64,000 bases of DNA from Candidatus Shapirobacteria bacterium. GTDB lineage: Bacteria > Patescibacteriota > Microgenomatia > UBA12405. The stretch's first letter is position 1; the number at the start of each line of letters is the position of its first letter. This document shows, in pieces, positions 7,925 to 58,506 of the stretch. The translations under genes and the position numbers were made by a program. Location of the stretch: the NCBI GenBank assembly GCA_041665485.1, contig JBAYIT010000001.1, positions 140,270 through 204,269 of the forward strand. Reading direction: 5' to 3'. The notes under the pieces are model-generated. The model had not been told where the DNA came from. It did no database searches and saw nothing but the letters and a program-made list of their open reading frames with translations.

Positions 7925-7947
7925 GAAATTTTGGGTATAATTTCGGT

Positions 7948-10857: not shown

Positions 10858-10859
10858 TT

Positions 10860-38058: not shown

Positions 38059-40326
38059 TTAGAGTTGCCAGGAGGCGGGGAGGAGTTGGGGGTAGAACTT
38101 GTCGTGGTTAATGTCGGTTTGGGCGCCGGGGTGGGCGATAGGGAGCTGGGCGCCACCGCCGGCAGTGGAGTCGGAACCGGTGCGGGCCAATTTGCCTTGG
38201 TCTTTTTGAGGAGTGAGATTGAAGTAGGTTTGAGTGAGACTACCTTCGTTCTTAGCGATGTTGGCGGGATAATCGACTTCTACTTCAACTTTGGCAGTGA
38301 GAGTGGTGTCTTCGGTTATTTGCCTCCAGAGATTTTTAACCCAGGCAACAAAATCAAGAGGCGAGGGTTTGTTTTGAGTGTTGTAGCCACCACCCATGGA
38401 ACAAACATCGGGCTTGGGAATACTACTTTGTTGCTTGTAGGGAATCCACCAAGCGGTGGCCTCACCGGCTTGACCACTGCTCATGGCGGCTAAATTGGGC
38501 ATGGTGTGGGGGTAAGGAGTAGGTTCGACGCCACCACCGGCGCCAACATTTTTAACAGTTGTTTCCAGATTGGCGGAAGCGCAACCGGGATTGGTGGCGA
38601 GAAAATAGGTGTAGCCGTTTTTGTAGCAACCACTGTAGGTTTCCCAAAAAGGGATGCCAGTGCGCTTTTCGTAACCACCACCTTCGTATTGTTTGGAGAG
38701 GAGTTCGCGAACATCACCGGGGACACCGTCTTCTACAATTTTTCCTTGAACACATTTGACGGCGAATTGATTGATTTTACCGGATTTAATCATGCCCCAA
38801 ACATATTCACTCATAAACATTGGTCGGCCGGCGCCTTGGCCGGATTTGTCCATGTCACGACAACCGCCAGTGTCGTGATAGGCGGTGCCGATTTGCTGGT
38901 CGTTGGCAATAAGATAGGGGTTGCGTTTAAGTTTGTCTTCTTCAAGAGAACGGACGGCTTCCTGGAAAAGTTTCCATTTTAGGTCAAGTTGCATGCAATA
39001 ACTCATGGAGCGGGTGACGGGGTTGTAGCCAAAACGATTGAATTTGCCGAACTCGCTTGCTAGAGAAAGAGGATCAGTGCGATTGGCGTGGACAATGTAT
39101 TGCTGGTGGTGGGTGGGGAGCTGGGAATAACTAGTGTAAGTGCAGTATTTGGCCGGGCCGAGGTTGGTTTGAGGGCCATCGACTTTGACTTCTTCTTCAA
39201 CTGAAGTAACGGTAAGTGGCTCGGTTTCGGTGGTGGTGGAACCGTCCTGATTTTTAGTAGTAGTTTTTTTGGGGGAATAAGATTGTTTGATGCTAGCCTG
39301 AAAGGTGCAGATTTGACCACCTTTGAGGTTGGCGTAGGCGTTAGTGTCGTAAATGCCGTTAATGTAACCGCGGGGATGAAGATAGGGGGTAGTGTTGACG
39401 GCGGGGGGGAGGAGGTCGTCGATTGACTCGCCACCGAGCTTGCTGGTAGGTAGAGGGGTAACGGAGGGACGGTGATTGGGGTTGGGGAGATTGGTTTGGT
39501 CGCATTTGCCGGAGATGGCATTGGCGACGTTGTCGTTGATAGTCCAGGAACCACCACTGAAATTACCGGGGGCGGCGGTGAAAAGAAAATAGGCAAGAAC
39601 GTCTGGTTTTGATTGCCATTGACTGATGATATTTTCGCCACAAAAGAAGTTGATAAAAGCCTGATCGTCATAGATTAGACCGTTTTTGTCGACGCCGATT
39701 TCAGTAAAAAGAAATTTTTTGCCAGCGAGGGGGCCTTTGTCATAATTAATAGCGGTGTCAGAGCGGTAAGGGTGATAGGAAATAATGTCAAAATAGGAAA
39801 AGGCCTTACTGGTGACGGGGTAATTGGGATTTTGAGGATCGAGAGCGGGGGAGATAAGGGTGGCGTTTTGAAGTTGGCTTTTGATGTCTTTAATGAAATT
39901 GTTGGCTCGGGAAATGGATTCTTCCAGAGTAATGTAGCCATCGGGAGCGCGCCGTTCGTAGTCTTGTTCAAGTTCGTTGAAAGGTTCGACATAAACGGTT
40001 TTACCGGAGGCGGCGAATTGGTTGATGGCTTGGCTCCATTCGGAAGCAATGGTGGCCTGTTGTTCTTTGGAACCGAGCATGAGTTGGCCGGTTTCGGTCC
40101 AAGAGGAATGAATGCGGACAACGACATTATTGGCCTGAATATCGGCTGTGAGCAGTTCTTGGGGAGAGCCGGGGGCGTAGAGAACCCAGTTTTGAACGTC
40201 TTGGTTAACAGTGTAACCGGCGGAGCTGGGATCGTTAATAAGATTGAGACCGGGGTCGGCGGCATTAACCGGTTGGGGAGAAATAAGAACTAAGAGATAA
40301 GAGATAAGAGATAAGAGATAAAACAC
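38059..40326 (-). CDS. secreted protein with N-terminal clan GH-A (GH5-like) glycoside-hydrolase domain (GTG start)
   Basis: Signal peptide with AxA site ...VLISPQPVNA/ADP; VEPFNELEQDY gives an NEx acid/base candidate; KFLFTEIGVD gives a TE nucleophile candidate, about 100 aa after the NEx; about 470 aa of C-terminal region are unrecognised; the hydrophobic core of the signal peptide is coded by the reverse complement of the GAGATAAGA repeat. Confidence 0.5.
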   Translation of the reverse strand: MFYLLSLISYLLVLISPQPVNAADPGLNLINDPSSAGYTVNQDVQNWVLYAPGSPQELLTADIQANNVVVRIHSSWTETGQLMLGSKEQQATIASEWSQAINQFAASGKTVYVEPFNELEQDYERRAPDGYITLEESISRANNFIKDIKSQLQNATLISPALDPQNPNYPVTSKAFSYFDIISYHPYRSDTAINYDKGPLAGKKFLFTEIGVDKNGLIYDDQAFINFFCGENIISQWQSKPDVLAYFLFTAAPGNFSGGSWTINDNVANAISGKCDQTNLPNPNHRPSVTPLPTSKLGGESIDDLLPPAVNTTPYLHPRGYINGIYDTNAYANLKGGQICTFQASIKQSYSPKKTTTKNQDGSTTTETEPLTVTSVEEEVKVDGPQTNLGPAKYCTYTSYSQLPTHHQQYIVHANRTDPLSLASEFGKFNRFGYNPVTRSMSYCMQLDLKWKLFQEAVRSLEEDKLKRNPYLIANDQQIGTAYHDTGGCRDMDKSGQGAGRPMFMSEYVWGMIKSGKINQFAVKCVQGKIVEDGVPGDVRELLSKQYEGGGYEKRTGIPFWETYSGCYKNGYTYFLATNPGCASANLETTVKNVGAGGGVEPTPYPHTMPNLAAMSSGQAGEATAWWIPYKQQSSIPKPDVCSMGGGYNTQNKPSPLDFVAWVKNLWRQITEDTTLTAKVEVEVDYPANIAKNEGSLTQTYFNLTPQKDQGKLARTGSDSTAGGGAQLPIAHPGAQTDINHDKFYPQLLPASWQL

Positions 40327-40341: not shown

Positions 40342-40380
40342 AAAGTCCGAAAAGTCCAAAAAGTTAGAAAGTCCAAAAAG
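40342..40380. repeat. word-repeat family C (AAGTCCAAAA variants), representative copy
   Basis: AAGTCCGAAAAGTCCAAAAAGTTAGAAAGTCCAAAAAG; other copies at about 46056-46098, 47145-47185, 47535-47580, 58325-58375. Confidence 0.8.
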
Positions 40381-40385
40381 CTATT

Positions 40386-40793
40386 CTAGCCGGGGATTTG
40401 GAAGATAGTGAGAGTGGAAATACCGGTGAAATTTTGGATAAGGCGTAAGATTAGCCAAGATGCAATGACACCAACTAGGCCGATAATGGCAGAAGTGAGG
40501 GTGCCAGCAGCGCCGGCGGCTTTTTTAGGATCGCCGTTACTTAGGACATAATTGAACCCACCAACAATAAACATAACCAAGAACACTAAACCGGCAATAG
40601 TGACGACGACAGATAGAGTGTTGTAAAAGAGACATTCGAGACCCTGAATAGTGGCAACGTCAGGGTTGGCTTTATCGACACAACGGGGGTCGCGAGCTTT
40701 CCAGTCTTGTTGGGCGAGGGCGGGGGCGGGGGCGGGAGAGATAAGAACTAAAAGATAAGAGATAAGAACTAAGAGATAAGACAGGCGGGACAT
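40386..40793 (-). CDS. pilin-like two-TM 'GDSKK-loop' protein, paralog 6 (start trimmed to ATG at 40791-40793)
   Basis: [29 protein letters not shown] signal-like segment coded by the repeat, then TM1, loop NGDPKKAAGAAG and TM2; the track ORF to 40949 would overlap paralog 1. Confidence 0.5.
   Translation of the reverse strand: MSRLSYLLVLISYLLVLISPAPAPALAQQDWKARDPRCVDKANPDVATIQGLECLFYNTLSVVVTIAGLVFLVMFIVGGFNYVLSNGDPKKAAGAAGTLTSAIIGLVGVIASWLILRLIQNFTGISTLTIFQIPG
40731..40790. repeat. word-repeat family D (GAGATAAGA / ACTAAGA variants), representative copy
   Basis: Other copies at about 12565-12605, 25855-25895, 26405-26440, 27110-27310, 30975-31010, 32960-33006, 33396-33426 (inverted), 40285-40320. 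Confidence 0.8.
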
Positions 40794-40800
40794 AAGTGGA

Positions 40801-40840
40801 TTATAGCAAACTAAAACCCCTCCGATAGCTATCGGAGGGG
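40801..40840 (-). terminator. Rho-independent terminator candidate after pilin paralog 1
   Basis: Perfect 24-nt palindrome CCCCTCCGATAGCTATCGGAGGGG (40817-40840) followed on the minus strand by TTTTAGTTT. Confidence 0.5.
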
Positions 40841-40867
40841 TTTGGAAAACAAGATCAGTTTCCAGAC

Positions 40868-41236
40868 TTATGGCTGGAAAGTGGGAACAGTCAAGGTTCC
40901 GAGAATGTCGATACCAAAGACGGTACCAATTAGCTTCATGATAGCCCAAGCAGCGAAGACAATGGCCAAACCAATGAGAGCATTGGTGATTTGATTTCTG
41001 GCACCTTCAACATTTTTACTATCGCCTTGGCTCATGACCCAACGAAGGCCACCCCAGACGAGCATAAAGAAAAACACAAGGGCAACGACCAACATAATAA
41101 GGGAGATGGCGCCGGAGATTATACCGCCAGCAGTAAGACCAGTAAGGGAATCCCACCCGCCACCAGCTTTTGGCTGGAGTTTAATTTGTTGTTGGGCGTA
41201 AGCCGGAACAACCAGAGAAAGTTGACTTAGGTTCAT
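40868..41236 (-). CDS. pilin-like two-TM 'GDSKK-loop' protein, paralog 1 (TrbC/VirB2-like architecture)
   Basis: 122 aa: signal-like N-terminus with AYAQQ, TM1, loop SQGDSKNVEGARNQ and TM2. Confidence 0.55.
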   Translation of the reverse strand: MNLSQLSLVVPAYAQQQIKLQPKAGGGWDSLTGLTAGGIISGAISLIMLVVALVFFFMLVWGGLRWVMSQGDSKNVEGARNQITNALIGLAIVFAAWAIMKLIGTVFGIDILGTLTVPTFQP

Positions 41237-41291
41237 AGTTTTTTAATTTATAAGTTAAATTTGGTTTATTTTAGCAATAAACCTTAATTTA

Positions 41292-41612
41292 TTAAATAGG
41301 GAGGAAAATTTGGAGATTTTCCAGATCCTTAAGGCCGAAGACCCAGCCGACTAATTTAAGGACAGCAAAGAGAGAGAAAAGAAGAACAAGACCAATCATG
41401 CCGTTGGTGAGCTCTTTTTTGGACTCTTCAATTTTTTTGCTGTCGCCTTGGCCGTCAATGAGATGAAAAGCAGCCATGAAGATAAACCAACAGAAATAAA
41501 GAACGCCAACTAACATAAAGATGGAGAAAACCGATTGAATAACGTTGTTAAGATAGATGATGGGTTCGTTGACCTGGGCTCCCGGAGTTTTGAGAATTGG
41601 GTTGGTGATCAT
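41292..41612 (-). CDS. pilin-like two-TM 'GDSKK-loop' protein, paralog 2
   Basis: 106 aa: TM1, loop DGQGDSKKIEESKK and TM2. Confidence 0.55.
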   Translation of the reverse strand: MITNPILKTPGAQVNEPIIYLNNVIQSVFSIFMLVGVLYFCWFIFMAAFHLIDGQGDSKKIEESKKELTNGMIGLVLLFSLFAVLKLVGWVFGLKDLENLQIFLPI

Positions 41613-41974
41613 AGGCCAAGTTTATCAAACATACTATTGAGATCGAGGACATTTTCCAGACCGAGGAGCTTGGCCATAAGAGCACCCAGGCCGAGAGAAA
41701 CAACAACAATAAATAAACCTAAAATGCCGTCGGTAAGGCGCTTTTTGGCATCTTGGGCTTTTTTGGCATCACCTTCGGAAGAAATGTAGGCATAGCCGGC
41801 AAAAATAATCTGGATAGAGAAGTAAATGACAGCAACAACGGTGAGGATGCCGATAACACGACCGACGGTGAGCTCGAGAGCGCTGGTGGCAGTTTTGGGA
41901 GAATTGGGATTTTGACCCGGACCACTTAGACCGTAATTGTTGTGAGGAATTTGGGCTAAAAGTTTATTGAACAT
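41609..41974 (-). CDS. pilin-like two-TM 'GDSKK-loop' protein, paralog 3 (start trimmed to ATG at 41972-41974)
   Basis: TM1, loop SSEGDAKKAQDAKK and TM2; the stop of the preceding paralog overlaps. Confidence 0.5.
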   Translation of the reverse strand: MFNKLLAQIPHNNYGLSGPGQNPNSPKTATSALELTVGRVIGILTVVAVIYFSIQIIFAGYAYISSEGDAKKAQDAKKRLTDGILGLFIVVVSLGLGALMAKLLGLENVLDLNSMFDKLGL

Positions 41975-41978
41975 AAAA

Positions 41979-42335
41979 TTAATTTGGCCCCCAAATAACA
42001 GGTTTGGTGGCGGAGATACCGGTGAGGCGCTCGATAACACCGGAAAGAATAAAAGCCGAAGAAATAATAACCAACCCTAAAATACTTTGCCAAATTTTGG
42101 CCCAAGCCAGCTCGGTTTTTTTGGAATCACCATTGGCAGAAATATATTCGTAACCGGCGATAATGAATTGAAAAACAACATAAATAGCGCCGATAGTGCC
42201 AACAATTTTAAAAATATTGCTCATGAAGATAAAGAGACCGGAGCCGGCATCGCTTTTATATGCAGTGGGGTTGCCAACTGTACCAAAAATTCCGGCTGCA
42301 GAAGCGGGAATTTTAGAAACTAGAAACCCCCCCAT
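41979..42335 (-). CDS. pilin-like two-TM 'GDSKK-loop' protein, paralog 4 (start uncertain; track ORF extends to 42488)
   Basis: TM1, loop SANGDSKKTELAW and TM2; upstream 42339-42420 holds a 13-nt inverted repeat and is more likely intergenic. Confidence 0.45.
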   Translation of the reverse strand: MGGFLVSKIPASAAGIFGTVGNPTAYKSDAGSGLFIFMSNIFKIVGTIGAIYVVFQFIIAGYEYISANGDSKKTELAWAKIWQSILGLVIISSAFILSGVIERLTGISATKPVIWGPN

Positions 42336-42444
42336 GCCCGTCATCGCGAGGCCGAAGGCCGTGGCGATCCCAACGAGATTGCTTCGTCCCCCGATAGTTA
42401 TCGGGATCCTCGCAATGACGTATGGGGTTATTTGTTTGATCATG

Positions 42445-42780
42445 TTAGATGGTGGGGTTGAGGATTTTGAGGCCAGTAATAACTTCAACTATTTGAATAA
42501 TAAAGTAAGCTAAAAAGACAACTAAAAAACCAATAAGGGCGTTGGTGATGGCTCCAGATGATTGAGCTGTTTTTTTAGAATCACCGCTACCGGCATTAAT
42601 TATAAAGGTAAGACCGCCGAAAATCAAAAGAGCCAGAAAAACAATACCAGCAACAGTGAGAGCGTTTTTGAGAATAATGGAGACGAGAACGGCCAGATTG
42701 GGATAGGAAGAGGAGATGGTGTGGCCACTGCCAAGAGGAGTATCACCAATTTGAACTTGAGCAAGAACTGGTTTAAACAC
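42445..42780 (-). CDS. pilin-like two-TM 'GDSKK-loop' protein, paralog 5 (first gene of the array; GTG start)
   Basis: 111 aa: TM1, loop NAGSGDSKKTAQSSG and TM2. Confidence 0.55.
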   Translation of the reverse strand: MFKPVLAQVQIGDTPLGSGHTISSSYPNLAVLVSIILKNALTVAGIVFLALLIFGGLTFIINAGSGDSKKTAQSSGAITNALIGFLVVFLAYFIIQIVEVITGLKILNPTI

Positions 42781-42786
42781 GGGTTA

Positions 42787-42792
42787 ATTATA
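42787..42792 (-). promoter_or_regulatory. -10 box TATAAT (minus strand) 6 nt upstream of the GTG start of the pilin-like array (leaderless)
   Basis: Minus-strand reading CATAGTATAATTAACCCGTG, near-identical to the context of the GH-A-like gene. Confidence 0.45.
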
Positions 42793-42862
42793 CTATGTCA
42801 GTTGACAGTTTTCAGTTACGAGTTACGAGTTATTGGGTACTAGGTACTTGGAGCTAGGTACA

Positions 42863-42871
42863 TGGTATAAT
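42863..42871 (+). promoter_or_regulatory. extended -10 promoter TGGTATAAT for the divergent 7TM/ATP-grasp cluster
   Basis: TGGTATAAT at 42863-42871; ATG at 42894. Confidence 0.4.
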
Positions 42872-42893
42872 ACGGCCAAATTAGATCCCCCCT

Positions 42894-43637
42894 ATGCTTA
42901 ACAAAATAATAGTATTTGTGTTGGCCGGAGCATTAGTTGCCAGCTGGCGAACAACTCCGATTTTGGCAGTAGAGCATTGGAACGGGTGGAATGGAATGAG
43001 GGTGATAGTGGGGATGGCAATTGAGCGAGGAGTTCCGGCGGAAACGATTGTTCTATTATTGTTATTGCCAGTAGTGGCGACAATGGTGGGGATTATTCAT
43101 TATTTGGTAGGTTTTACCGGTTACGGGATTTTTATGCCAACGATGGTGGCAGTGGTGTTGACGGCAACAGGAATTCCGAGCGGTTTATTACTTTTTGGCC
43201 TGATTTTGATGATATCGAGCGGAGGAAATATGCTTTTGAAGCGACTCAAACTTCATTTTTGGCCGTCAAGATCGATTAATTTAGTAATGATTGGACTGGG
43301 GACGTTTGGGTTGATGCTGTTGGGGACAGTAACTCCGTGGATAGATTTGAGTAAGATATCGATTTTCCCGGTGTTATTTATGGTGATGTTGGCGGAGGAG
43401 TTTGTGAGAACGCAGTTGATTAAAAGCCGAAAAGAGGCGGTGAAATTGACTTTGGGAACATTGATTTTAGCGGTGGTGGGGGCAGTAATTATGGATGTTG
43501 GCTGGATTAGAGAGGCGGTGTTGTTAAATCCGGAAATTGTTTTGGTGGTGGTAGCGGTTAATTTGCTGGTGGGAAACTATAGTGGGATTAGACTGACGGA
43601 GATTGCTAGATTTAAGAAAGCGATTCGGAAAAAATAA
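42894..43637 (+). CDS. seven-TM membrane protein (resembles the 7TM module found next to ATP-grasp peptide ligases)
   Basis: 247 aa with about seven hydrophobic helices; first gene of an operon with ATP-grasp genes. Confidence 0.45.
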   Translation: MLNKIIVFVLAGALVASWRTTPILAVEHWNGWNGMRVIVGMAIERGVPAETIVLLLLLPVVATMVGIIHYLVGFTGYGIFMPTMVAVVLTATGIPSGLLLFGLILMISSGGNMLLKRLKLHFWPSRSINLVMIGLGTFGLMLLGTVTPWIDLSKISIFPVLFMVMLAEEFVRTQLIKSRKEAVKLTLGTLILAVVGAVIMDVGWIREAVLLNPEIVLVVVAVNLLVGNYSGIRLTEIARFKKAIRKK

Positions 43638-43676
43638 GAATTTACGAATATACGAATCTACGAATTAAGATAAAAA

Positions 43677-45041
43677 ATGATATTTGGATTAGAGAAATAC
43701 AAACAGTTTTTGACGAAAAATGAGAGAAATAAGGTGTATTTGCGAAAAAATTCGATAGAGGGAAGGCGAGTGGCGGATAGTAAATGGAAAACAAAGATGG
43801 TGTTGCAAAAAGAAGGGGTGGGGGTGCCAAAATTGATCGGGAGATTGAGATCGGGGGCAGGGGTAGAGAAATTTGAGTGGGAAAAATTAACAGGTAATTT
43901 TGTAATTAAGCCGGTGTCGGGATATGGAGGAGAAGGGATATTAATAATAAAAAAGAAAATTTCTAATGACAAATTTCTAATGATGGATGGGAAAACTATA
44001 TTTATAGAAGATTTAAAGAGGCATTGTTTAGAGATATTGGCGGGGAGATATAGCTTGTATGGAATGCCGGACACGGTGTTAATTGAAGAAAGAATAAAAA
44101 TTCATCCGATGTTTTTGAGCTATACCCGAACTGGGACGCCGGATATCCGGGTAATTGTTTATAACCGAGTGCCGGTAATGGCGATGTTGCGGATTCCAAC
44201 CGAAAAAAGCCAAGGAAAGGCAAATTTACAACAGGGAGCAATGGGGCTGGGGGTGGATTTGGCTACAGGAATTACTACTTTTGGAATTGAGGGCAAAGGA
44301 GAAATAATCAAGAAAATTTATGACCGAGGGAAAAAGAGAATGATTAAGGTGAATGGAATTAAAATTCCAAAATGGAGAGAAGTGCTGGAAGTGGCGATAA
44401 GTTGCCAGAGAGCGATTCCGGAATTGGGCTTTGTGGGAGTGGACATAGTCTTAGATAAGGAAAGAGGGCCATTGGTGCTGGAAGTCAATTCCCGCCCCGG
44501 ATTGTCAATACAATTATGTAATCGGGCGGGATTGAAGGCTAGAATGCAAAAAGTTGAGGATGTGGAGGCAAAAAGTGTGGAGCACAGTATTTCCCTGGCT
44601 AAGTATCTATTTGGGGAGAGCTTTTTTGAGAAAGTAGAGCAAAAAGAGAGGGCAAAAACAATCAAGCCAATTGAAATAATTGAAATTAAAGTGCCAAAAG
44701 GCTTTGTGCCAAGTTTTGAAAAAAGCCCAGTGCTAAAAAAAGGAAAACATCGGGTGGTGGAAGTGAGAGCTAAAATAGATACCGGGGCATTTAGGAGTTC
44801 GATTGATAAGGTTCTGGCGGAAAAGATGGGGTTGCTTGATAAAACACGGGTGTTGTATTATCGACATTATCGGTCGAGTTTGGGAAGACAGGTGGACAGG
44901 CCAGTGGTGGGAGTAACTTTCTGGGTGTTGGGGAAAAAGATTGTGACGGCGGTAAATGTGGCCGATAGACATAAGTTGAGGACAAAATTTTTATTGGGGA
45001 GAAAAGATTTAGAAGGTTTTTTAATTTCTGCAAATAAATAA
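43677..45041 (+). CDS. ATP-grasp ligase (alpha-L-glutamate-ligase-related type) fused to C-terminal retropepsin-like 'Zn-protease' domain
   Basis: ATP-grasp motifs FVIKPVSGYGGEGI, GVDIVLDKERGPLVLEVNSRPG; the C-terminal ~120 aa (RVVEVRAKIDTGAFRSSID...) resemble the RimK-associated putative protease domain. Confidence 0.6.
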   Translation: MIFGLEKYKQFLTKNERNKVYLRKNSIEGRRVADSKWKTKMVLQKEGVGVPKLIGRLRSGAGVEKFEWEKLTGNFVIKPVSGYGGEGILIIKKKISNDKFLMMDGKTIFIEDLKRHCLEILAGRYSLYGMPDTVLIEERIKIHPMFLSYTRTGTPDIRVIVYNRVPVMAMLRIPTEKSQGKANLQQGAMGLGVDLATGITTFGIEGKGEIIKKIYDRGKKRMIKVNGIKIPKWREVLEVAISCQRAIPELGFVGVDIVLDKERGPLVLEVNSRPGLSIQLCNRAGLKARMQKVEDVEAKSVEHSISLAKYLFGESFFEKVEQKERAKTIKPIEIIEIKVPKGFVPSFEKSPVLKKGKHRVVEVRAKIDTGAFRSSIDKVLAEKMGLLDKTRVLYYRHYRSSLGRQVDRPVVGVTFWVLGKKIVTAVNVADRHKLRTKFLLGRKDLEGFLISANK

Positions 45042-45140
45042 AAACCCTTCCCCTAACCCCTTCACCTCCGCCTGTCGTCGGACAGGTTGACAGGGCAGGG
45101 GAAAAAATAATTTTTAATTTTAAATTTTTAATTTTAAAAA

Positions 45141-46100
45141 ATGACAAAAGTTGCGGTGTTTTATGGAGGAAAGTTGACTGATCATTTGGTGATGCTAAAG
45201 CGGGCAGGAAAGAAAGAAGGGGTGGAGTTAAAGTTGTTTTCTTACAACAAAGTGGTGTTTAGTAGTGACAGGCCCAATATTATGCTGAGAGATGGATTAA
45301 CCAAGTCGTTGAAAAGCGGGCGTGATTATGGCCTTGATTATTTTGATGTGCTGTTTTTTAGAACGGCGAAAAAGCACTGGCAAGAGGTGTCTTGGTTGGT
45401 TGATGAGGCTAAGATCTTAGGGAAAATAATTGTTGACCCGGTGGTGGGGAGTGCCAGACCAACTGACGCCTGCAAGGCATTTCAAATGTTACAGATGTTA
45501 AAAGCGGGAATTCCGACACCAAAAACTTTATATGGAAGTTTGGGTTATTTATTAACTGAAGCGCCAAAATATTTAGGTTTTCCAGTAATAATTAAGGGAA
45601 GTGGAGGCCATCGGGGAGGGAGTGTGTATAAAGCTGACAACAAAATGGAGTTGGATAAAATCATGGCAGAGTTAAGACCAGTAGAGATTGCCGAAGGGAG
45701 GAGATATTTAGCTCAAGAGTTTATTAAAAATAGCGGGGATTATCGGGTGATTGTGTTGGGAGACAAAGTACTGGGGGCGATGAAAAGATCGGCTCAGGTG
45801 GAAGGAGAATTTAGAAATAATTTCTCCCGAGGAGGGACGGTAGAATTAGCGGAACTTGACGAAGAAACAAAGAAGTTGTGTGTAAAGGCAGCAAAAGCTT
45901 GCGGATTATGGGTGGCAGGAGTGGATTTGGTGTTTGCCAATGATGATAAAAAAAGGCCAATGTTTTGGGAAGTTAACCGAGGACCGCAGTTTAGAGGGTT
46001 TATGCAGGCGACAGGAATTGATGTGCCACGAGAAATCGTAAGATTTCTGGTAAGTTTAAAGTTAGAAAGTCCAAAAAGTCCAAAAAGTCCAAAAAGTTAA
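45141..46100 (+). CDS. RimK-family ATP-grasp ligase 1
   Basis: FPVIIKGSGGHRGGSVYK, YLAQEFIKNSGDYRVIVLGDKVLGAMKR and GVDLVFANDDKKRPMFWEVNRGP motifs; C-terminus LESPKSPKSPKS coded by the AAGTCCAAAA repeat. Confidence 0.75.
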   Translation: MTKVAVFYGGKLTDHLVMLKRAGKKEGVELKLFSYNKVVFSSDRPNIMLRDGLTKSLKSGRDYGLDYFDVLFFRTAKKHWQEVSWLVDEAKILGKIIVDPVVGSARPTDACKAFQMLQMLKAGIPTPKTLYGSLGYLLTEAPKYLGFPVIIKGSGGHRGGSVYKADNKMELDKIMAELRPVEIAEGRRYLAQEFIKNSGDYRVIVLGDKVLGAMKRSAQVEGEFRNNFSRGGTVELAELDEETKKLCVKAAKACGLWVAGVDLVFANDDKKRPMFWEVNRGPQFRGFMQATGIDVPREIVRFLVSLKLESPKSPKSPKS

Positions 46101-46107
46101 AACATAA

Positions 46108-46677
46108 ATGATTAAAGAGGGGGAGTTGAAGAAAAGGCGGATACCGAAGATTTTTTGGGCGGGGTTGATATTGGCCGGAACGGTGGGAATGGTAAAGATG
46201 GGAGCCTTTGGTGATTTCAGAAATAATAAGCTGGTATTTCCAACTAAGACAGTCGTAACCGTGATAATTGATGGTGATACTTTTACGCTTAAAAATGGGT
46301 TAAGTTTTCGGTTGGCGGGAGTAAATGCTCCAGATAGAAATGTTAATTATGAAGATTATTTGAAGGCCAAGGACTGGTTAACAAGAAGAATCAAAGACAA
46401 AGTGGTGTATCTAGAGTATGATCGGTATTTGGATGAAAAATTTGGAAGATTAACAGGATATGTGTGGCTGGGGTGTGAATCTACTCCAAAGTTTAAACCT
46501 TGGAATTACATGAAAAAAAGTCAAAACGAATCTATGCCGGAATTAAGGGAGAATCCTGATGGGTGCAAGGCTGGTGTGATGGTTAACGAAGAGTTAATCA
46601 AATCTGGGAATGGAAAGTTTAAGGTGTATAGCGAGTGGGGAAAGCTGAAATATCAGGGAAGATTGGGAAAAGATTAG
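46108..46677 (+). CDS. staphylococcal-nuclease-like (SNase/thermonuclease) protein with N-terminal TM anchor
   Basis: VIDGDTFTL...RLAGVNAPD...GRLTGYVW motifs of SNc-fold nucleases. Confidence 0.65.
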   Translation: MIKEGELKKRRIPKIFWAGLILAGTVGMVKMGAFGDFRNNKLVFPTKTVVTVIIDGDTFTLKNGLSFRLAGVNAPDRNVNYEDYLKAKDWLTRRIKDKVVYLEYDRYLDEKFGRLTGYVWLGCESTPKFKPWNYMKKSQNESMPELRENPDGCKAGVMVNEELIKSGNGKFKVYSEWGKLKYQGRLGKD

Positions 46678-46731
46678 ATCTTAGATTTTGGTTCTTAGTT
46701 CTTAGATACTGGGTACTGGATGCAAAATGTG

Positions 46732-46740
46732 TGGTATAAT
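46732..46740 (+). promoter_or_regulatory. extended -10 promoter TGGTATAAT; ATG 7 nt downstream (leaderless RimK-2)
   Basis: TGTGGTATAATCGGCCAGATGG; the track ORF start at 46727 lies inside the promoter. Confidence 0.4.
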
Positions 46741-46747
46741 CGGCCAG

Positions 46748-47686
46748 ATGGATAAGAAGATAATTGCTTTTACGATGTCGCCGAAACAAAGCCAATTTGA
46801 GGTGGATAGGTTGGCACAAGAAGGGAAGAAGTTGGGAGTGGAAGTGGAGAAAGTAAATTATCGAGATTTGACTTTTGAGGTTAATAATCAAAAACCTAGG
46901 GTATATATAAATAGTATAGAGAGAAATGGGGAGAACACTTTGGGCTGTTGGTTTAGAGTGGCGGGAACAAAGTCGGGGAAATATGTGGAAGGGAGGAATA
47001 TGCTAATCCGATTAAAACAAAATGAGATGTTTTGTGTTAATGCGGGGAGCTATTTGGGTTGGCCAAGAATGGGGAAGATTTCCCAACATGCGGTGTTTGT
47101 GGAGGCGGGAATTCCAGTAGTGCCGACGGCGATCTTCTATGAAAGATCGCAAGTCAAAAGTCTGAAAGTAGAAAGTCCAAAAAGTTTTGGTGAGTGGGAT
47201 TTTCCGATAATTACAAAACATGAGAGGGGGTATCAGGGGAAGTCGGTGAGGAAACTTGAGAATTGGGAGGAAGTGGAAAAGTGGCTTAATAAGATCGATG
47301 AAAAAAATTTGGGGATGTTTTTGTGGCAAAAGTTTTTGCCGGGGGGGTGGGATTTGAGGGTGATTGTGCTTGACGGTAAGGTGCTGGGAGCAATGAAGCG
47401 GACGGCTTCCGGTGATGAATTTAGAAGTAACTATAGCCTTGGAGGGGCGGTGGAAAAATGGGAGTTATCGGATGAGGACACTAAATTAGCGGAAAAGGTG
47501 GCTAAAGTGTGCGGGCTGGATTATTGCGGAGTGGATATTATGAAGTCCAAAAAGCCTGAAAGTCCAAAAAGTGAGGAAAGTGTGGTGTTGGAGGTGAATA
47601 GGCAGTGCCAGTTTAAGGGGTTTGAAGAGGCAACAGGAATAAATGTGGCTAGGGCAGTGGTTGACATGATAAGAAAAAGAGGCTAA
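46748..47686 (+). CDS. RimK-family ATP-grasp ligase 2 (start set to ATG at 46748)
   Basis: FPIITKHERGYQGKSV, WDLRVIVLDGKVLGAMKR and CGVDIMKS...VVLEVNRQCQF motifs; two in-frame AAGTCCAAAA-type repeats code ESPKSF and KPESPKSEES. Confidence 0.75.
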   Translation: MDKKIIAFTMSPKQSQFEVDRLAQEGKKLGVEVEKVNYRDLTFEVNNQKPRVYINSIERNGENTLGCWFRVAGTKSGKYVEGRNMLIRLKQNEMFCVNAGSYLGWPRMGKISQHAVFVEAGIPVVPTAIFYERSQVKSLKVESPKSFGEWDFPIITKHERGYQGKSVRKLENWEEVEKWLNKIDEKNLGMFLWQKFLPGGWDLRVIVLDGKVLGAMKRTASGDEFRSNYSLGGAVEKWELSDEDTKLAEKVAKVCGLDYCGVDIMKSKKPESPKSEESVVLEVNRQCQFKGFEEATGINVARAVVDMIRKRG

Positions 47687-47694
47687 ATTTATTT

Positions 47695-48903
47695 GTGCGA
47701 AGAATATTTTGGCCAATAGTTTTGATAATTTTTTTGGTTTTTGGCGTGACGGGAGTGAGAGCAGAGACTGATTGGTGTAAGCAAATAAGAGAAGTTTATG
47801 AAGCCTCAAAGGGCGGACGGTGTAATGAAGACGATCAAGATAAAAAATTTAGTTATTTTGCTGATCTTGATATTAATGATGTTGTCAATGAAGCCGACAA
47901 TGAACAGCTGGGCCGATTAACAGTGGAGCAGTGTAAAAATAAGATTGAGCATTCTAAAGCTATTTCAGAAACGGGTGAGTGCCGATGTGAGACAGGGTAT
48001 TGGCATACTCTTAATATTTTTAATTGTGACAAGCGAACTTTTTGTGGAATGAGCCTGATGACTGATAATGGCTTAAGGATTTTTAATACAGAGGATGAGT
48101 GTAAAAAAAGTGCTGGAGAAGAGGAGAAAAGGAGGGGTGGAGTGGGAATGCCGAATCCGGCATCGTTTTTTTGTGTTGATATGGGTTATCAAAATGTCGG
48201 AGGAATGTGCGTGAATGGGGAAAGTAGATGCAATGAATGGGCATTTTTTATGGGAGAATGTCGCTTGAATGGCAGTGGTAGTAAGCCACATCTTTATTTG
48301 GAGAGAAAGAGCGAAGAGACTAAGATTGGGGAGACAATGATGGTTACGGTGGGGATTGATAGTAAAGATAGAAAAATCGTTGGAGCTGATGTCATGATTA
48401 AGTTTAATGGTTCGTTAAATCTCGAAAAAGCGGAAATGGTGGATGAGTCTTTAGTTGGGTATCGTTATGATAGGAATAATTTTTATGGCAAGATTAATAA
48501 TGAGACTGGGGTTTATGATGTGACTTTAGTACCACCCAGTGAAGAATATGTTGGTTTGATGACTAAAACAGCAAAGGGGCCGGTGGTAAATTTGACTTTT
48601 CGACGAACAGATGGTGGATTACCCCAGGTATATTTTGCCTGTCGTCAAAATACGGTGAGAGATTCAAACATTATTAGTGACGATGCGATAGATATCATAA
48701 GTTGTGGTGACAACTTAAATTTGATTGGAATGGCGGGGGATGCAGATTGGGATTGGAATGTTGGTTTTAAAGATTTATTGATTTGGAAGGGTGGCTACTT
48801 GTACAAAGAGGATATGAGGGCTGATTTTGACCGGAGTAAGGAAGTTGATTTTGCTGATTTGAAAATATGGAAAGATAAATACCTGTTGTACCAAAATAAT
48901 TAA
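47695..48903 (+). CDS. secreted Cys-rich protein with DUF333-like segment
   Basis: Signal peptide; MPNPASFFCVDMGYQNVGGMCVNG...CNEWAFFMGEC resembles DUF333 (putative hemolysin-like) modules; C-terminal D/W-rich repeats DADWDWNVGFKDLLIWK and DFADLKIWK. Confidence 0.45.
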   Translation: MRRIFWPIVLIIFLVFGVTGVRAETDWCKQIREVYEASKGGRCNEDDQDKKFSYFADLDINDVVNEADNEQLGRLTVEQCKNKIEHSKAISETGECRCETGYWHTLNIFNCDKRTFCGMSLMTDNGLRIFNTEDECKKSAGEEEKRRGGVGMPNPASFFCVDMGYQNVGGMCVNGESRCNEWAFFMGECRLNGSGSKPHLYLERKSEETKIGETMMVTVGIDSKDRKIVGADVMIKFNGSLNLEKAEMVDESLVGYRYDRNNFYGKINNETGVYDVTLVPPSEEYVGLMTKTAKGPVVNLTFRRTDGGLPQVYFACRQNTVRDSNIISDDAIDIISCGDNLNLIGMAGDADWDWNVGFKDLLIWKGGYLYKEDMRADFDRSKEVDFADLKIWKDKYLLYQNN

Positions 48904-48905
48904 AC

Positions 48906-50390
48906 GTGTTAGATTTATCTGTGAAGAATAAATTTCAGCTGATAGTTTTGCTGATTTTAGGAGTGGCCCTGGCGGGTGGGGTGTATCTTTCTCAAAGAAG
49001 CCAGGAAACAAGAAGAGGAGCGGCGGGAGGAGAAAAAGTAATTTTGTTTATGCCGGATGAAAGAAACTTGAAGGTGGGGGAGGTGTTGGAAACAACGATT
49101 GTGGTTGGTACCGAGCCAGGGTATGGTTTATCTGCCGCAACTTTAAATATAAAATATAACCCACAGGTTGTTGATTTTCAGACGGCAGATGCGTTATCGT
49201 ATTTTGGGATTTTTAGTGAGACAGGTGTGTCGGGAGACAAGAACTTTGACCTAGTATATAAACCGGGAGGAGCAACGTTTGGCCCAGTATCGTTGGTTAA
49301 GTTAAGGTTCTTAGCTAAAGTTGCTGGTGCGGTTGATTTAAATGTTGGTGGAAATATCGACTTGTTGGATGCAGAAAACAACACATTGAGTGCTGTGGGA
49401 AGAAAACACAAGATAGTTTTTCTTACTTCGGAAATGGTGGCGAAGCCGAACTATGTGGTGGAAGGGAACCCAGTGGTGATTCCTTCGGGAACGGTTTGCA
49501 AAGAAGGGGTTAATACCTTGAAGATGGATGAGAACTACTCTTGCGATAGTGGAGGAGGATATAGGTATGCGAATTGCGAATGTTATGATGGGTTTGGTGC
49601 CAGAATCGGGTCGGAGGATGGCTGTTATAACTATGGAGAAATGGCAGAGTTGGCGAGGAAAGAGTGTGTGGGTAGATCTAATTGCTCAACAATACCAATT
49701 CCCGGAAGCGATGTTTCATTGAGTTTGTCGCTGTTGGGCAATGAGCCAGCGGTGGTGGGCAAACCGTTTAAGATCGGGGTTGATTTTAACTCAATTGATT
49801 CGAAAGTTCGGGTTTCAGGACTAAAGCTTAAATTTAATTATAATACGGACTATGTTTCTGATGCCAAGTGGCGTCCAGGAATTTTTTCCCAGGTTGGATC
49901 AACCGACACTGATATACAAAGTTTAGTCGGCGGAGAGCTGGATTTAAACTTGGTTTCAATGAAGCAAGGAGATGAATTATTGTCGAGCGGAAGAGTGGCA
50001 GAAATTGAGTTGATGCCAACTTTTCCGAAAGTAATGGATGGGGCTACGTTTAATGTATATTTGGATGTTGTTGAAGTAGTTGGAGTTGATATAAACGGAA
50101 AGAGTAAATCGTTTGGGGTGAAAGAAAGAACTATTAGTTTGCCGGTATCGGTGGTTTTACGGAAGCCAACGATTACTGATATGTGCCGATTTTGCCCGGA
50201 GGGCGAGAGAATTTTGGGTGACGCTAATTGTGACAATAGTGTAAGTATGCTTGATTTTGAGGTTTGGAGAAGCGCTAAACACGACCTGACCCCAATCTCG
50301 ATAATGGCGATGGCGAACTTGGATTGTAGTAGTGATGGGGTGATGATGGCTGACTTTGAAGTTTGGAGAAAAGCGATGTTTGACAAATAG
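48906..50390 (+). CDS. membrane-anchored cohesin-like + double dockerin-like protein
   Basis: N-terminal anchor; cohesin-like region VGEVLETTIVVGTEP...LNIKYNPQVVDF; C-terminus with two segments GDANCDNSVSMLDFEVWRSA and LDCSSDGVMMADFEVWRKA that fit the dockerin calcium-loop pattern D.N.D..V...D. Confidence 0.55.
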   Translation: MLDLSVKNKFQLIVLLILGVALAGGVYLSQRSQETRRGAAGGEKVILFMPDERNLKVGEVLETTIVVGTEPGYGLSAATLNIKYNPQVVDFQTADALSYFGIFSETGVSGDKNFDLVYKPGGATFGPVSLVKLRFLAKVAGAVDLNVGGNIDLLDAENNTLSAVGRKHKIVFLTSEMVAKPNYVVEGNPVVIPSGTVCKEGVNTLKMDENYSCDSGGGYRYANCECYDGFGARIGSEDGCYNYGEMAELARKECVGRSNCSTIPIPGSDVSLSLSLLGNEPAVVGKPFKIGVDFNSIDSKVRVSGLKLKFNYNTDYVSDAKWRPGIFSQVGSTDTDIQSLVGGELDLNLVSMKQGDELLSSGRVAEIELMPTFPKVMDGATFNVYLDVVEVVGVDINGKSKSFGVKERTISLPVSVVLRKPTITDMCRFCPEGERILGDANCDNSVSMLDFEVWRSAKHDLTPISIMAMANLDCSSDGVMMADFEVWRKAMFDK

Positions 50391-50436
50391 GGTGTTAATT
50401 ATGTTAAATTTATCTATATAAAGTTTTTTTAACAAA

Positions 50437-52887
50437 ATGCAAAAAATATTAGGGGGGGTGGGATTGTTAGTTTTGTTAGCGGCGTTGGCGGGAGGAGTCT
50501 ATCTTTCCCAAAAAAGCCAGGAAACGAGAAGAGGGGCGGCGGGAGGTAATGGAGTGGTGTTGTTTACACCAACAGAGAAAAATTTTAGAGTTGGTGAATT
50601 ACTTGAATCAACAGTGATATTGGATGTGGCCGGTTTGGGGGTAAGTGGAGCAACTGGTTTGTTGGGAGCTGAAGTCAATGTGGCTTATGATACGAATGTG
50701 GTGGGGTATGAAGGGATAGAACCATTATCCGGATATGAATTAATGTTTGATAAGATAGCTGATACAAGAACGGGGACGAATCTTTCTTTGGTTTTTACGA
50801 GAACGACAGCAGAACCGAACGGATCGGTGCAGTTGGCAAAATTGAAGTTTAGAGCTTTGAGGCCGGGTAATGTTAATTTGAAAGTGACGGGTGTATTTTC
50901 TGTGGTTAGATCAGCGACAACTGAATTAGCCAAGATAACGGTGACTGAAGAAAGAAATGCTGTGGCTGGCTATGTGGTGTTGGGTGATGCTTCGCCAACA
51001 GTGAGACCCGTGGTTGACTGTAGTCGATGCAGTGTTCTTTATGATAACCAGGCGGCTAAGTGGAGAGCAGTTGATTGCACTGTATTTCCGGGAGATGAGG
51101 TGGTGGAGAGAATTTATGACCCAGTGAATTGTCCACTGGCTCCGGCTTCAACCCGGAGAGTAAACACTTGTCAAAGATGTAGCACAGTAAACCAAGGACA
51201 GTATGTGTGGTGGGAGATTTCGGAGGGGGAGAGCTGTAATCGTGATCCGGCGCCCGGGGCTAAGATTTATCGAGCAGAGGGGGTGGCGATGTGTTTGACA
51301 ACGACACCAACAGTGAGTGTTGTTCCGGCTAAACCGATCGTTCTTACGATTGATTGTGCCAGAAAAGAAGCAAAAGGAGTTATTGCCGGCGGTTTGTCAA
51401 ATCAGAGAAATTTATGGTTGGTGATTCGTGATATGGTTACTGGCGATAAGATTATTCGCACTTATGTTGAGTCGTGGAGTGATACTTTGGCGGTGATAAA
51501 CACAGCTTCGGGAACATTGATTTCAATTCGGACAGGACAGGGGTATGTGTCGAGAATGTCTTTAATTGCTGATAGGCATTACGAAGTTTCAATTTATTCG
51601 GCGCCGTTTACGACGGGAATACCGACTTTTGGAACACCGTTGGCGCAGGGTGATTTGCATTATGATTGCCCGACGGTGGGTTTGACTTCGACACCAATTC
51701 CAACTCCAACTCCAACTTCTATAACCCCTACTTTGACTCCAACACCAACTCCAACAATAGCACCTTTGTCGTGTGGAGGGAGGTGTTATGGAGATGCTGA
51801 TTGCGCTAGTGGCTATACCTGTTTTCCGGTAGGAATGGATCGGTGTGAGGGGATTGCTTGGCCAACAGTGAAGAAATTTACTTCAGGAGAAAGACTTAAT
51901 ACACTGGAGATGGCAGACATAAAGAGAAGGTGTCCGGATTCGGTGGCGATAGTAAATAACATTGTGGCTGATCCGGAAAGAATGGTGGGCCAATGCCGAA
52001 AAGAAGAATGTGTGACCGATAAGAACTGTGCTTGTACACCCAGGTTTGGTTGCACTAGCGACAGCGGTTGTGAATCTTGGGAAAGGTGTGATGTGGCCAG
52101 AAATGTTTGCTTGTCTAATACCTGCGATATTGATGCTGATTGCCCATCTGACAGAAGGTGTATTAATAGGGTTTGCTTATCAAAAACGGTTAGCGAGGAT
52201 ATCGTTTCTCTGTCTATGAGTGGTGTTTCTCAAGCAGTTGTTGGCCAGCCGTTTGTGGTAACAATTAAATACAATACCGGAGACCTGAACAAGAAGGTGT
52301 CGGGATTGAAAATGACTTTTAAGGTGCCATCGGGTAGCTTTAAAATTTTGTCAAACATGGTTAGTGACGATTTTAAGGGAACTGGTAGTTCGACGCTTGT
52401 TACTGGCGACGGAATGACTAGCTCAGTGGAGTTTAATCTGGTGTCACTTAAAACATTTGAGGAATTGAAATCGAGCGGAGTGGCAGTGGAGATAAAAATA
52501 ATGCCATTAGTAACAGGAGTGTTTGTTGGCTCTGAAGATGGTGCAATAAGACTATTTACGACGGAAGTGGTGGGAAAGACTGTTTCTGGTGGGAGCATTT
52601 CTTATCCAATTGGCGGAGAAGTTAATCTTCCTATTACAGTAGTAAGTGGACCAACAATATCAGCTGATATTTGTCGTTTTTGTCCGAGTGGTGAGAGACT
52701 GGTTGGAGACGCTAATTGTGATGGCGCTCCGAGCATGCTCGACTTTGAAGTCTGGCGGAGTGCGATGTTTGATAAAACTCCACTTAGCCAGAGAGCGATG
52801 GCAGATATGGACTGCACCGGAGACGTAAAAATGCTTGACTTTGAAGTCTGGCGGAGTGCTTTCTTTGATAAAGTTTATGCCAATTAA
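50437..52887 (+). CDS. membrane-anchored cohesin-like + Cys-rich + double dockerin-like protein (paralog of 48906..50390)
   Basis: Shares the N-terminus ...LAGGVYLSQKSQETRRGAAGG... and the C-terminal CRFCP.GERL.GDANCD...MLDFEVWRSA repeats with its upstream paralog. Confidence 0.55.
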   Translation: MQKILGGVGLLVLLAALAGGVYLSQKSQETRRGAAGGNGVVLFTPTEKNFRVGELLESTVILDVAGLGVSGATGLLGAEVNVAYDTNVVGYEGIEPLSGYELMFDKIADTRTGTNLSLVFTRTTAEPNGSVQLAKLKFRALRPGNVNLKVTGVFSVVRSATTELAKITVTEERNAVAGYVVLGDASPTVRPVVDCSRCSVLYDNQAAKWRAVDCTVFPGDEVVERIYDPVNCPLAPASTRRVNTCQRCSTVNQGQYVWWEISEGESCNRDPAPGAKIYRAEGVAMCLTTTPTVSVVPAKPIVLTIDCARKEAKGVIAGGLSNQRNLWLVIRDMVTGDKIIRTYVESWSDTLAVINTASGTLISIRTGQGYVSRMSLIADRHYEVSIYSAPFTTGIPTFGTPLAQGDLHYDCPTVGLTSTPIPTPTPTSITPTLTPTPTPTIAPLSCGGRCYGDADCASGYTCFPVGMDRCEGIAWPTVKKFTSGERLNTLEMADIKRRCPDSVAIVNNIVADPERMVGQCRKEECVTDKNCACTPRFGCTSDSGCESWERCDVARNVCLSNTCDIDADCPSDRRCINRVCLSKTVSEDIVSLSMSGVSQAVVGQPFVVTIKYNTGDLNKKVSGLKMTFKVPSGSFKILSNMVSDDFKGTGSSTLVTGDGMTSSVEFNLVSLKTFEELKSSGVAVEIKIMPLVTGVFVGSEDGAIRLFTTEVVGKTVSGGSISYPIGGEVNLPITVVSGPTISADICRFCPSGERLVGDANCDGAPSMLDFEVWRSAMFDKTPLSQRAMADMDCTGDVKMLDFEVWRSAFFDKVYAN

Positions 52888-58320: not shown

Positions 58321-58506
58321 ACAACAAGTTAAAAGTCCGAAAAGTGGAAAGTTAAAAAGTAGTTAGAAACAGAGGAAGTCAAACTTCCTCTGAACTGACT
58401 ACAACAGTACATTAACAATCTGTTGAATCGAAATTCCGAAGACACTTTGTCCGTGTCTTTGGAAAACTATTATTATCGAAACTAATAGGCCGGTAATAAT
58501 AGAGTT

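Follow-up and report, generated by a model that had tools for sequence, protein, structure and literature searches.

A five-gene operon in a Candidatus Shapirobacteria genome is, as judged from its domain content and gene order, a new architectural variant of the Rlo and Rim kind of ATP-grasp ligase system that is widespread and strongly conserved in Patescibacteria. All coordinates refer to the 64-kb stretch of DNA that was analysed, here called the window. Five co-directional open reading frames (ORFs) on its + strand (42894-47686), with intergenic gaps of 7-99 bp, encode a seven-transmembrane (7TM) protein, an ATP-grasp ligase fused to a retropepsin domain, a first RimK-family ligase (RimK-1), a staphylococcal-nuclease-like (SNase-like) protein and a second RimK-family ligase (RimK-2) (Table 1). 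An initial annotation of this DNA had placed a five-gene cluster here, and all five ORFs were found there on the + strand. Its domain calls (7TM_transglut, ATPgrasp_ST, retropepsin, two RimK and SNase) were all borne out by Pfam and NCBIfam, and its expectation that the cluster is kept as a unit in relatives was confirmed by comparison of gene neighbourhoods (L003-L014 and metagenome loci). Since the block recurs in ~95 independent loci, the operon lies far beyond chance. Literature searches returned no description of the ligase-retropepsin fusion in the Candidate Phyla Radiation (CPR) or of its RimK-like accessories.

The combination of 7TM protein, ATP-grasp ligase and protease had initially been taken for a computational prediction only. 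That description is outdated: the triad is the Rlo stress-tolerance system, for which genetics, structure and biochemistry are available in Pseudomonas aeruginosa, and which comprises the RloA retropepsin, the inactive-transglutaminase 7TM protein RloB and the ATP-grasp enzyme RloC (Lormand et al., mBio 2025, PMC12239564). RloA proteins are secreted retropepsins with a signal peptide and a conserved disulfide, and they cleave poly-glutamate in vitro (PMC12239564). The rloA1-3 triple mutant dies in hypo-osmotic medium and is impaired in biofilm formation, cell shape and its tolerance of antibiotics, a beta-lactam phenotype is also found among Rlo mutants, and deletion of rloB or rloC suppresses the defects of the triple mutant (PMC12239564). 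The authors left the RloA substrate as either free poly-Glu or poly-glutamylated proteins, and reported the distribution of RloB as 96% proteobacterial (PMC12239564).

The fused protein consists of an RloC-like ATP-grasp domain (residues ~11-312) and a RimB/RloA-type retropepsin domain (residues ~330-454). In its AlphaFold model (mean predicted local distance difference test score, pLDDT, 84.9) both domains are well folded, and the linker between them (residues 316-326) has low confidence. PF14397 matched the protein with 211 bits (cut-off 31) over profile positions 3-277 of 278, and the solved structures closest to the ligase domain were RimK, ArgX/LysX, Ddl and cyanophycin synthetase. The Pfam results also included a weak match to tubulin tyrosine ligase (TTL). 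The fused ligase was the most conserved protein of the block (~73% identity across Shapirobacteria and Woesebacteria): median identity to relatives was 73% for the fused ligase, 61% for RimK-2, 60% for the 7TM protein, 53% for RimK-1, 44-64% for the pilins encoded next to the operon and 43% for a VirB6-like protein beside them.

On the single fused sequence, PF05618 reached 23.1 bits (E 7.5e-5) against a 27-bit cut-off and matches to clan-AA aspartic proteases were also weak, while precomputed PF05618 matches were present in most listed homologs. A PDB search with the single fused sequence gave no match. The retropepsin match required a profile of the domain, which retrieved the solved RimB/RloA-family structures 9g59 (2.4e-8), 9g58 (2.5e-5) and 2pma (2.4e-3), the last being Lpg0085, the molecular-replacement model for RloA (Lormand et al., PMC12239564). 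The motifs AK.DTGA..SS, (E/D)RPV, N..DR and LLGR are common to the domain and the solved proteins of this family. The catalytic DTGA is intact (residues 368-371, nucleotides 44778-44789) and does not vary within the Microgenomates family, and in an alignment of 43 homologs D368 and T369 were at least 90% conserved and G441 and D444 invariant. The domain (residues 330-454) contains no cysteine and no signal peptide, and no transmembrane segment lies between the two domains of the protein. Because it is without cysteine and signal peptide, the retropepsin domain is closer to cytosolic RimB than to secreted RloA. Basic-rich stretches in its flap region (YYRHYRSSLGK..DRPV) and C-terminal strand (DR.KLRTKFLLGRKD) would be consistent with an acidic substrate.

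The 7TM protein matched PF14402 with 82 bits (cut-off 25), and its topology comprises a signal or anchor helix, a short outside segment, seven transmembrane helices and a basic cytoplasmic tail (AlphaFold2 model, pLDDT 70.7). The NCBIfam model for RloB, NF052267, gave 61.8 bits against a cut-off of 900 and covered its 7TM part (profile positions 313-506 of 508). No extracellular transglutaminase or PKD domain was found in the 247 residues, and the periplasmic inactive transglutaminase domain of RloB is thus absent. A lenient Pfam scan of 37 7TM homologs produced no consistent second family, the PIG-P and OATP matches being weak and sporadic. The cytoplasmic tail, NYSGIRLTEIARFKK, is conserved and basic, and the tail motif NYSGIRL.E..RF is nearly invariant among the 7TM proteins. 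The 7TM gene lies directly 5' of the fused ligase gene in 60 of 61 informative loci. In some relatives the two modules occur in one polypeptide, as 7TM+ATPgrasp_ST fusions (P0238, P0244 and P0253), as a transglutaminase+7TM+ATPgrasp_ST fusion (P0248), or in the order signal-anchor, retropepsin, 7TM module, ATPgrasp_ST (P0265). Since seven helices lie between them, the protease of P0265 should be outside the cell and its ligase inside. From the 7TM-ligase and retropepsin-7TM-ligase fusions, which are the strongest evidence, together with gene adjacency, we infer that this cytoplasmic C-terminal tail is where the ligase docks. The 7TM C-terminus was also considered as an acceptor and was ruled out, being basic and, in fused relatives, not a free end.

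A HMMER scan of 1.84 billion representatives yielded 2069 relatives of the fused protein at E <= 1e-3, of which 368 passed E <= 1e-30. Architectures were classified in the best 150 of the 2069 with our own hidden Markov models (HMMs), and Pfam confirms them. Among these 150, 54 were ligase and retropepsin, 41 carried ligase, retropepsin and a MATCAP domain (PF08014, DUF1704/TIGR02421), 7 ligase and MATCAP, 42 ligase alone (partly fragments), 5 7TM and ligase, and 1 retropepsin, 7TM and ligase. Pfam further shows that P0155 is a fusion of ATPgrasp_ST, retropepsin and a second ATP-grasp domain. The D[TS]G motif was kept in 66 of 78 metagenome ligase-retropepsin proteins and lost in 38 of the 41 relatives with a fused MATCAP domain. 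Because the motif is kept in ligase-retropepsins and lost where MATCAP is also present, the ligase always retains one functional hydrolase partner. The 800-aa MATCAP-fused form was found in Peregrinibacteria, other Patescibacteria and one Nitrospirota metagenome-assembled genome, always preceded by a PKD-PKD-7TM_transglut gene and with the pilin array absent. In one Patescibacteria locus (L016, 9361-16376), a DegT aminotransferase, a DUF3541 gene and five additional ATP-grasp genes directly follow the 7TM and ligase-MATCAP pair, an arrangement that suggests a much longer ligase assembly line.

RimK-1 and RimK-2 are 39% identical to each other. Both scored above the 143.4-bit cut-off of the RimK family model TIGR00768 (149.1 and 145.9 bits), PF08443 covered positions 6-187 and 4-188 of 188, the GVD...EVN motif is readable in both, and RimK-1 matched RimK 5zct in the PDB (E 2e-22). 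Against the S6-ligase equivalog PRK10446 they reached 81.2 and 57.1 bits, with a cut-off of 331, in line with the initial view that these ligases are something other than ordinary S6-RimK orthologs. A tblastn search with E. coli S6 found no match in the window and one weak match in a single distant locus, L031. With scores so far under the equivalog cut-off and no S6 in the window, the S6-RimK reading was dropped. None of the window ORFs, checked for an acidic C-terminal tail as a candidate substrate in cis, had one.

Proteins like the fused ligase form more than 120 clusters at 69-88% identity from Shapirobacteria, Woesebacteria and other Microgenomates. Annotated neighbourhoods were compared for L003-L005, and L003-L014 were mapped with phmmer. 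Every sufficiently long locus in this set has the same gene order, with a VirB6-like gene and six pilin paralogs on the - strand, and the 7TM gene, fused ligase, RimK-1 and RimK-2 on the + strand. A scan of genome contigs with the single fused protein gave 9 close loci. Metagenomes, scanned with an aligned set of diverse ligase-retropepsins, gave 80 loci at 37-59% identity to P0121, and these loci were annotated with our own HMMs. A RimK-1 ortholog lies directly 3' of the fused ligase in most loci, and at least one extra RimK-like ligase was found within 4 kb 3' in 50 of 61 loci, or 53 of 61 with separate MATCAP genes included. Where at least 2.5 kb of downstream sequence was available (44 loci), 0, 1, 2, 3 and 4 extra ligases were counted in 9, 19, 13, 2 and 1 loci, respectively, counts that are too low because a further ~317-aa ATP-grasp family, present in 14 loci, was missed by the models. 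Of the 44 informative metagenome loci, 7 have a pilin array, and these 7 belong to the closest relatives. On these neighbourhood counts the conserved system is the 7TM protein, the ligase-hydrolase and the accessory RimK-like ligases, and the pilin link is clade-specific; the connection to the pilins drawn in the initial annotation stands as synteny within Microgenomates and fails beyond the closest relatives.

The neighbours that recur in distant loci are rplL, rplJ, rplA, rplK and nusG (convergent, downstream), a DsbA-like gene, ruvC and yebC (upstream), and mnmA. Since these are housekeeping genes, they suggest that the operon has been inherited vertically since long ago. In many of the distant CPR loci L030-L097 a convergent rplL-rplJ-rplA-rplK-nusG run follows the ligase operon, and in at least one of them the L7/L12 homolog has a Glu/Lys-rich N-terminal extension. 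This proximity may reflect clade synteny or a link to the ribosome.

We consider it quite possible, if still short of probable, that the operon encodes a Microgenomates Rlo-type system, that is a membrane-docked ligase machine that makes an acidic, probably poly-alpha-glutamate-like peptide and has trimming built in. Most likely this peptide would consist of glutamate residues in alpha linkage, as an oligomer or polymer that is either free or attached to a carrier or a C-terminus. In a first step, the RloC-like ATP-grasp domain would bind the conserved cytoplasmic tail of the 7TM protein, as gene adjacency and the 7TM-ligase fusions indicate. This domain and the two RimK-family ligases would then add amino acids in an ATP-dependent manner, with the RimK paralogs extending or diversifying the chain; RimK chemistry and the poly-Glu specificity of RloA and RimB point to glutamate as the substrate. 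The retropepsin domain, with its intact DTGA and basic residues in flap and channel, would dimerise and trim or degrade the acidic chain in the cytoplasm, as RimB does for RimK. Finally, the 7TM protein might pass or present the product at the cell surface, because RloA is secreted, the retropepsin-7TM-ligase fusions split the protease and ligase sides, and the extracellular domains of 7TM proteins vary elsewhere. The SNase-like gene would be a passenger and the pilin array a clade-specific neighbour. The homologies, the conservation of the core, the fusions and the complementary intactness of the two hydrolase types support this proposal; the amino-acid specificity, the export and the polymeric nature of the product are what we infer.

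Several points weigh against it. TIGR02291 matched the fused protein with 263 bits (E 3e-78), which is under its 314-bit cut-off; by sequence the fused ligase is clearly a family member but no TIGR02291 equivalog. The glutamate specificity is an extrapolation to RloC-type ligases from RimK chemistry and from the proteases RloA and RimB. With a cytoplasmic protease, as here, the architecture can do without an export step. Furthermore, a series of several different ligases fits the stepwise synthesis of a defined hetero-peptide no less well than that of a homopolymer.

The same ligases and hydrolases might instead serve as writer and eraser in reversible C-terminal protein tagging, in which Glu or other residues would be added to one or a few cellular proteins, in the way that RimK/RimB act on S6 and TTL/MATCAP on tubulin, and the 7TM protein would regulate this as a membrane sensor or anchor. 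The RimK family acts on protein C-termini (S6 and LysW), and RimK and LysX/ArgX were the best PDB matches here. The relatives with a ligase fused to a MATCAP-type carboxypeptidase, the weak TTL match, the cytoplasmic retropepsin of the window protein and the receptor-like appearance of the variable 7TM extracellular domains (PKD and transglutaminase) fit this scheme as well. Many distant CPR operons adjoin rplKAJL-nusG; these rplL neighbours are, however, convergent rather than co-operonic and may reflect clade synteny. The window contains neither an S6 gene nor an acidic-tailed protein, and a purely cytoplasmic target is at odds with the secreted RloA and the retropepsin-7TM-ligase fusions, which place the hydrolase outside. 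We therefore regard protein tagging as somewhat unlikely.

Several distinct ligases in series would also suit a peptide assembly line at the envelope, where they would extend a peptidoglycan precursor, cross-bridge or lipid-linked polymer in the manner of Ddl or D-Asp ligase while the 7TM protein handles a lipid-linked intermediate. Ddl is indeed among the structural neighbours, Rlo mutants have cell-shape, beta-lactam and hypo-osmotic phenotypes (PMC12239564), and murD-like, yggT, divIC and murJ genes are found close to the core pair in L015 and L017. We find this reading fairly improbable, since envelope genes are not a general feature of the neighbourhood, the core has no conserved glycosyltransferase, Mur-ligase or flippase beside it, and RimB/RloA proteases show specificity for poly-Glu and not for stem peptides.

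The RimK pair and the nuclease had initially been viewed together as a novel variant of the triad. Extra RimK-like ligases, one to four in number, turned out to accompany the core in most CPR loci, and the pair is no peculiarity of this genome; the SNase-like gene is no component of the system. PF00565 matched the SNase-like protein with 26.7 bits (cut-off 21), and a single-sequence PDB search with it gave no match. Aligned by BLASTP to what we take to be the S. aureus nuclease sequence, with D21, R35, D40, E43 and R87 as its presumed catalytic and Ca-binding residues, the protein keeps D19/D21, R35 and R87 and has Asn in place of D40 and Asp in place of E43. The phmmer mapping found no ortholog of the gene in any of L003-L014, and in L012 the gap between RimK-1 and RimK-2 holds an unrelated 255-aa inositol-monophosphatase-like gene instead. 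Because the gene is absent from all other loci and that slot is filled by an unrelated gene in L012, it is a lineage-specific passenger in a variable slot.

Both RimK genes carry a 9-bp DNA repeat, which encodes the C-terminal tail SPKSPKSPKS of RimK-1 and two in-frame ESPKS insertions in RimK-2. The 13-mer AAAGTCCRAAAAG occurs 9 times, always on the + strand, compared with 0.02 occurrences expected by chance (40342-40380, 46066-46096, 47172-47184, 47559-47571 and 58332-58344), and in noncoding DNA it is arranged as tandem units of 9 bp, while in frame it encodes these segments of RimK-1 and RimK-2. It has the appearance of a short repeat that is spreading through coding and noncoding sequence.

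With its three ATP-grasp enzymes, protease domain and membrane protein, the operon has a superficial likeness to a microviridin-type cluster, and graspetide clusters exist in CPR (PMC8939145). A graspetide or other ribosomally synthesised and post-translationally modified peptide cluster, built from maturases of the ATP-grasp type, a protease for the leader and an exporter, is nevertheless extremely unlikely. The maturase models scored 22.8 and 19.4 bits against 350 (TIGR04187) and 16 against 425 (TIGR04185), compared with ~146-149 for the RimK-family model. There is no conserved small precursor ORF, the gaps of 7-99 bp being tandem-repeat spacers that are absent in relatives, and the distribution of the operon is housekeeping-like and vertically conserved. 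The PADLOC anti-phage defence models gave no match at E <= 1e-3 for any of the five proteins, and a defence-system reading was dropped.

Table 1. Positions in the window of the operon genes, the divergent pilin array and the region between them.
Feature	Coordinates	Strand	Description
7TM gene	42894..43637	+	247 aa; PF14402 7TM_transglut, E 6e-23
Fused ATP-grasp ligase-retropepsin gene	43677..45041	+	454 aa; PF14397 ATPgrasp_ST, E 2e-62
RimK-1 gene	45141..46100	+	319 aa; TIGR00768 149 bits, PF08443 E 1.4e-33
SNase-like gene	46108..46677	+	189 aa; N-terminal membrane anchor and PF00565, E 8e-6
RimK-2 gene	46727..47686	+	319 aa; TIGR00768 146 bits, PF08443 E 4e-30
Six VirB2-like type IV secretion system (T4SS) pilin paralogs	40386..42780	-	PF18895 matches
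Divergent promoter region, pilin gene 1 / 7TM gene	42781..42893	.	113 bp

The pilin-like array that had been described as divergent from the operon across a ~100-bp region was recovered as six - strand genes behind a 113-bp spacer. Four of the six paralogs scored above the 26.6-bit cut-off of PF18895 (39.7, 39.1, 32.8 and 27.8 bits) and two fell just under it (26.2 and 23.6). Microgenomates relatives have a 1:1 ortholog of each of the six and keep their order, and the divergent arrangement, with a spacer of 48-266 bp, is invariant in all sufficiently long Microgenomates loci. An extended -10 element for the + operon, TGgTATAAT, occupies 42863-42871 and begins at the start coordinate of the initial annotation; upstream of the 7TM gene, the extended -10 TGnTATAATACGC was kept in 16 of 16 aligned Microgenomates loci. 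On the opposite side, ATTATAC (GTATAAT on the - strand) adjoins the pilin-1 start and is conserved. Because this -10 element lies just 6-12 nt from the pilin-1 start codon, it suggests that the pilin operon mRNA is leaderless or nearly so. Before the 7TM gene, a conserved C-rich motif, TCCCCT, takes the place of a Shine-Dalgarno sequence. The back-to-back promoters of the pilin and ligase operons, as predicted here, would permit shared regulation.

The invariant divergence and the 1:1 orthology of all six pilins might be taken to mean that the ligases and protease modify these VirB2-like proteins, for example by cyclising or tagging them. We hold such pilin maturation to be very unlikely. In Proteobacteria and in most CPR loci no pilin array accompanies the 7TM and ligase core, the termini of inserted pilins lie outside the cytoplasm and are not acidic, and the whole block is syntenic, including the VirB6-like and GH18 genes, so that shared ancestry can account for the adjacency. 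A broader reading sees in the module an ancestral, near-housekeeping envelope machine of Patescibacteria that would make and export a new anionic peptide polymer, a poly-alpha-glutamate-like polyanion of the surface or of a periplasm equivalent, and that in Microgenomates became coupled to the VirB2-pilin/T4SS-like host-contact apparatus, e.g. through envelope conditioning for pilus assembly or pilin modification. We give this version little credence.

Pilin arrays near dnaA have been described in Microgenomatia, ATP-grasp genes being unmentioned, and VirB6 there is reportedly scarce or undetectable (PMC12102498). In the window, a 589-aa membrane protein beside the pilin array (36143-37912, - strand) had a weak TrbL/VirB6 match (E 8.6e-4), and orthologs of ~43% identity occupy the same position in relatives. 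T4SS-like genes lie beside dnaN and dnaA (3586-11831 and 13066-15789); they comprise a PrgI-like/VirB3-like gene and the genes of a VirB4-like ATPase (876 aa) and an M23-peptidase protein (969 aa). This layout matches the origin-proximal T4SS location reported for Patescibacteria. The GC skew of the + strand was strongly positive (+0.16 to +0.48) in 31 of 32 2-kb windows, including both sides of dnaA, the sole exception being 2001-4000 (-0.03).

Tandem repeats with 7-8 bp units (AGTTACG, ATACGAAT, TAATTTT and TTAGATC) fill nearly every spacer of the operon, at 42796-42861 (7-bp units), 43634-43670, 45108-45138 and 46674-46707. Other heptamer repeats (e.g. ATTACGA three times) occupy the same spacer positions in L004, L005, L006, L011-L013, L021 and L026. 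A 7/21-bp tandem repeat, AGAGATAAGAA..., at 40279-40321 and 40737-40781 encodes a repeated segment that two different secreted proteins, a 755-aa protein and pilin 6, have in their signal peptides. On the 3' side of RimK-2 (47695-54097) lies a run of secreted proteins (402, 494, 816, 151 and 252 aa) with weak cohesin, dockerin and DUF333 matches, and behind it come GH18 and DedA/VTT genes. GH18 and VTT are found again in relatives, and conservation is poor among the cohesin-like proteins.

The 2025 study in Pseudomonas leads to the question of what RloC-type ligases make, and the CPR variant clarifies the logic of the system by placing ligase and hydrolase in one polypeptide, the hydrolase being a MATCAP carboxypeptidase where the retropepsin domain has decayed and an intact retropepsin otherwise, while natural fusions tie the ligase to the 7TM cytoplasmic tail. 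These proteins also provide compact constructs for in vitro identification of the product. Since the fused ligase is among the most conserved proteins of these reduced genomes, its conservation points to an important and so far unstudied role in the envelope or in stress across a very large group of bacteria that are uncultured.

Among known systems, the poly-gamma-glutamate synthetase PgsBCA/CapBCA combines a membrane-coupled ligase, an anionic surface polymer and a dedicated hydrolase. PgsB is Mur-ligase-like and forms gamma linkages, and the resemblance is a functional analogy without homology, in which surface export by the CPR 7TM protein would be the counterpart. LysX/ArgX, which act with LysW, are among the best structural and sequence neighbours of all three CPR ligases; the operon differs in that a LysW-like carrier ORF and genes for lysine or arginine biosynthesis are absent, and its scores of 110 and 89 bits stay far from the equivalog cut-off of 276. 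In the tyrosination cycle of eukaryotes, the ATP-grasp ligase TTL is opposed by a MATCAP-family (PF08014) carboxypeptidase. About 48 of the 150 best relatives likewise fuse an ATP-grasp ligase to a carboxypeptidase of this family, whereas the window protein has a retropepsin in place of the MATCAP domain. In Pseudomonas, RimK adds Glu tails to ribosomal protein S6 and RimB removes them. The CPR operon resembles RimK-RimB(-RimA) in pairing a cytoplasmic RimK-family ligase with a cytoplasmic RimB-type retropepsin, that is a ligase with its own trimming protease. It differs in that RimK-1 and RimK-2 score far under the S6-ligase equivalog cut-off, the protease is joined to an RloC-type and not a RimK-type ligase, a membrane partner is obligatory, and neither a nearby S6 gene nor RimA is present. 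With the Rlo system the operon shares a homologous PF14402 7TM protein, a PF14397/TIGR02291 ATP-grasp ligase and a PF05618 RimB/RloA-type retropepsin with DTGA, and here too the 7TM gene adjoins the ligase gene. Unlike in Rlo, the 7TM protein has no transglutaminase domain, the retropepsin is the C-terminal part of a cytoplasmic ligase rather than a separate secreted protein with a signal peptide and disulfide and is without Cys, the operon adds two RimK-family ligases, and the host is a CPR bacterium.

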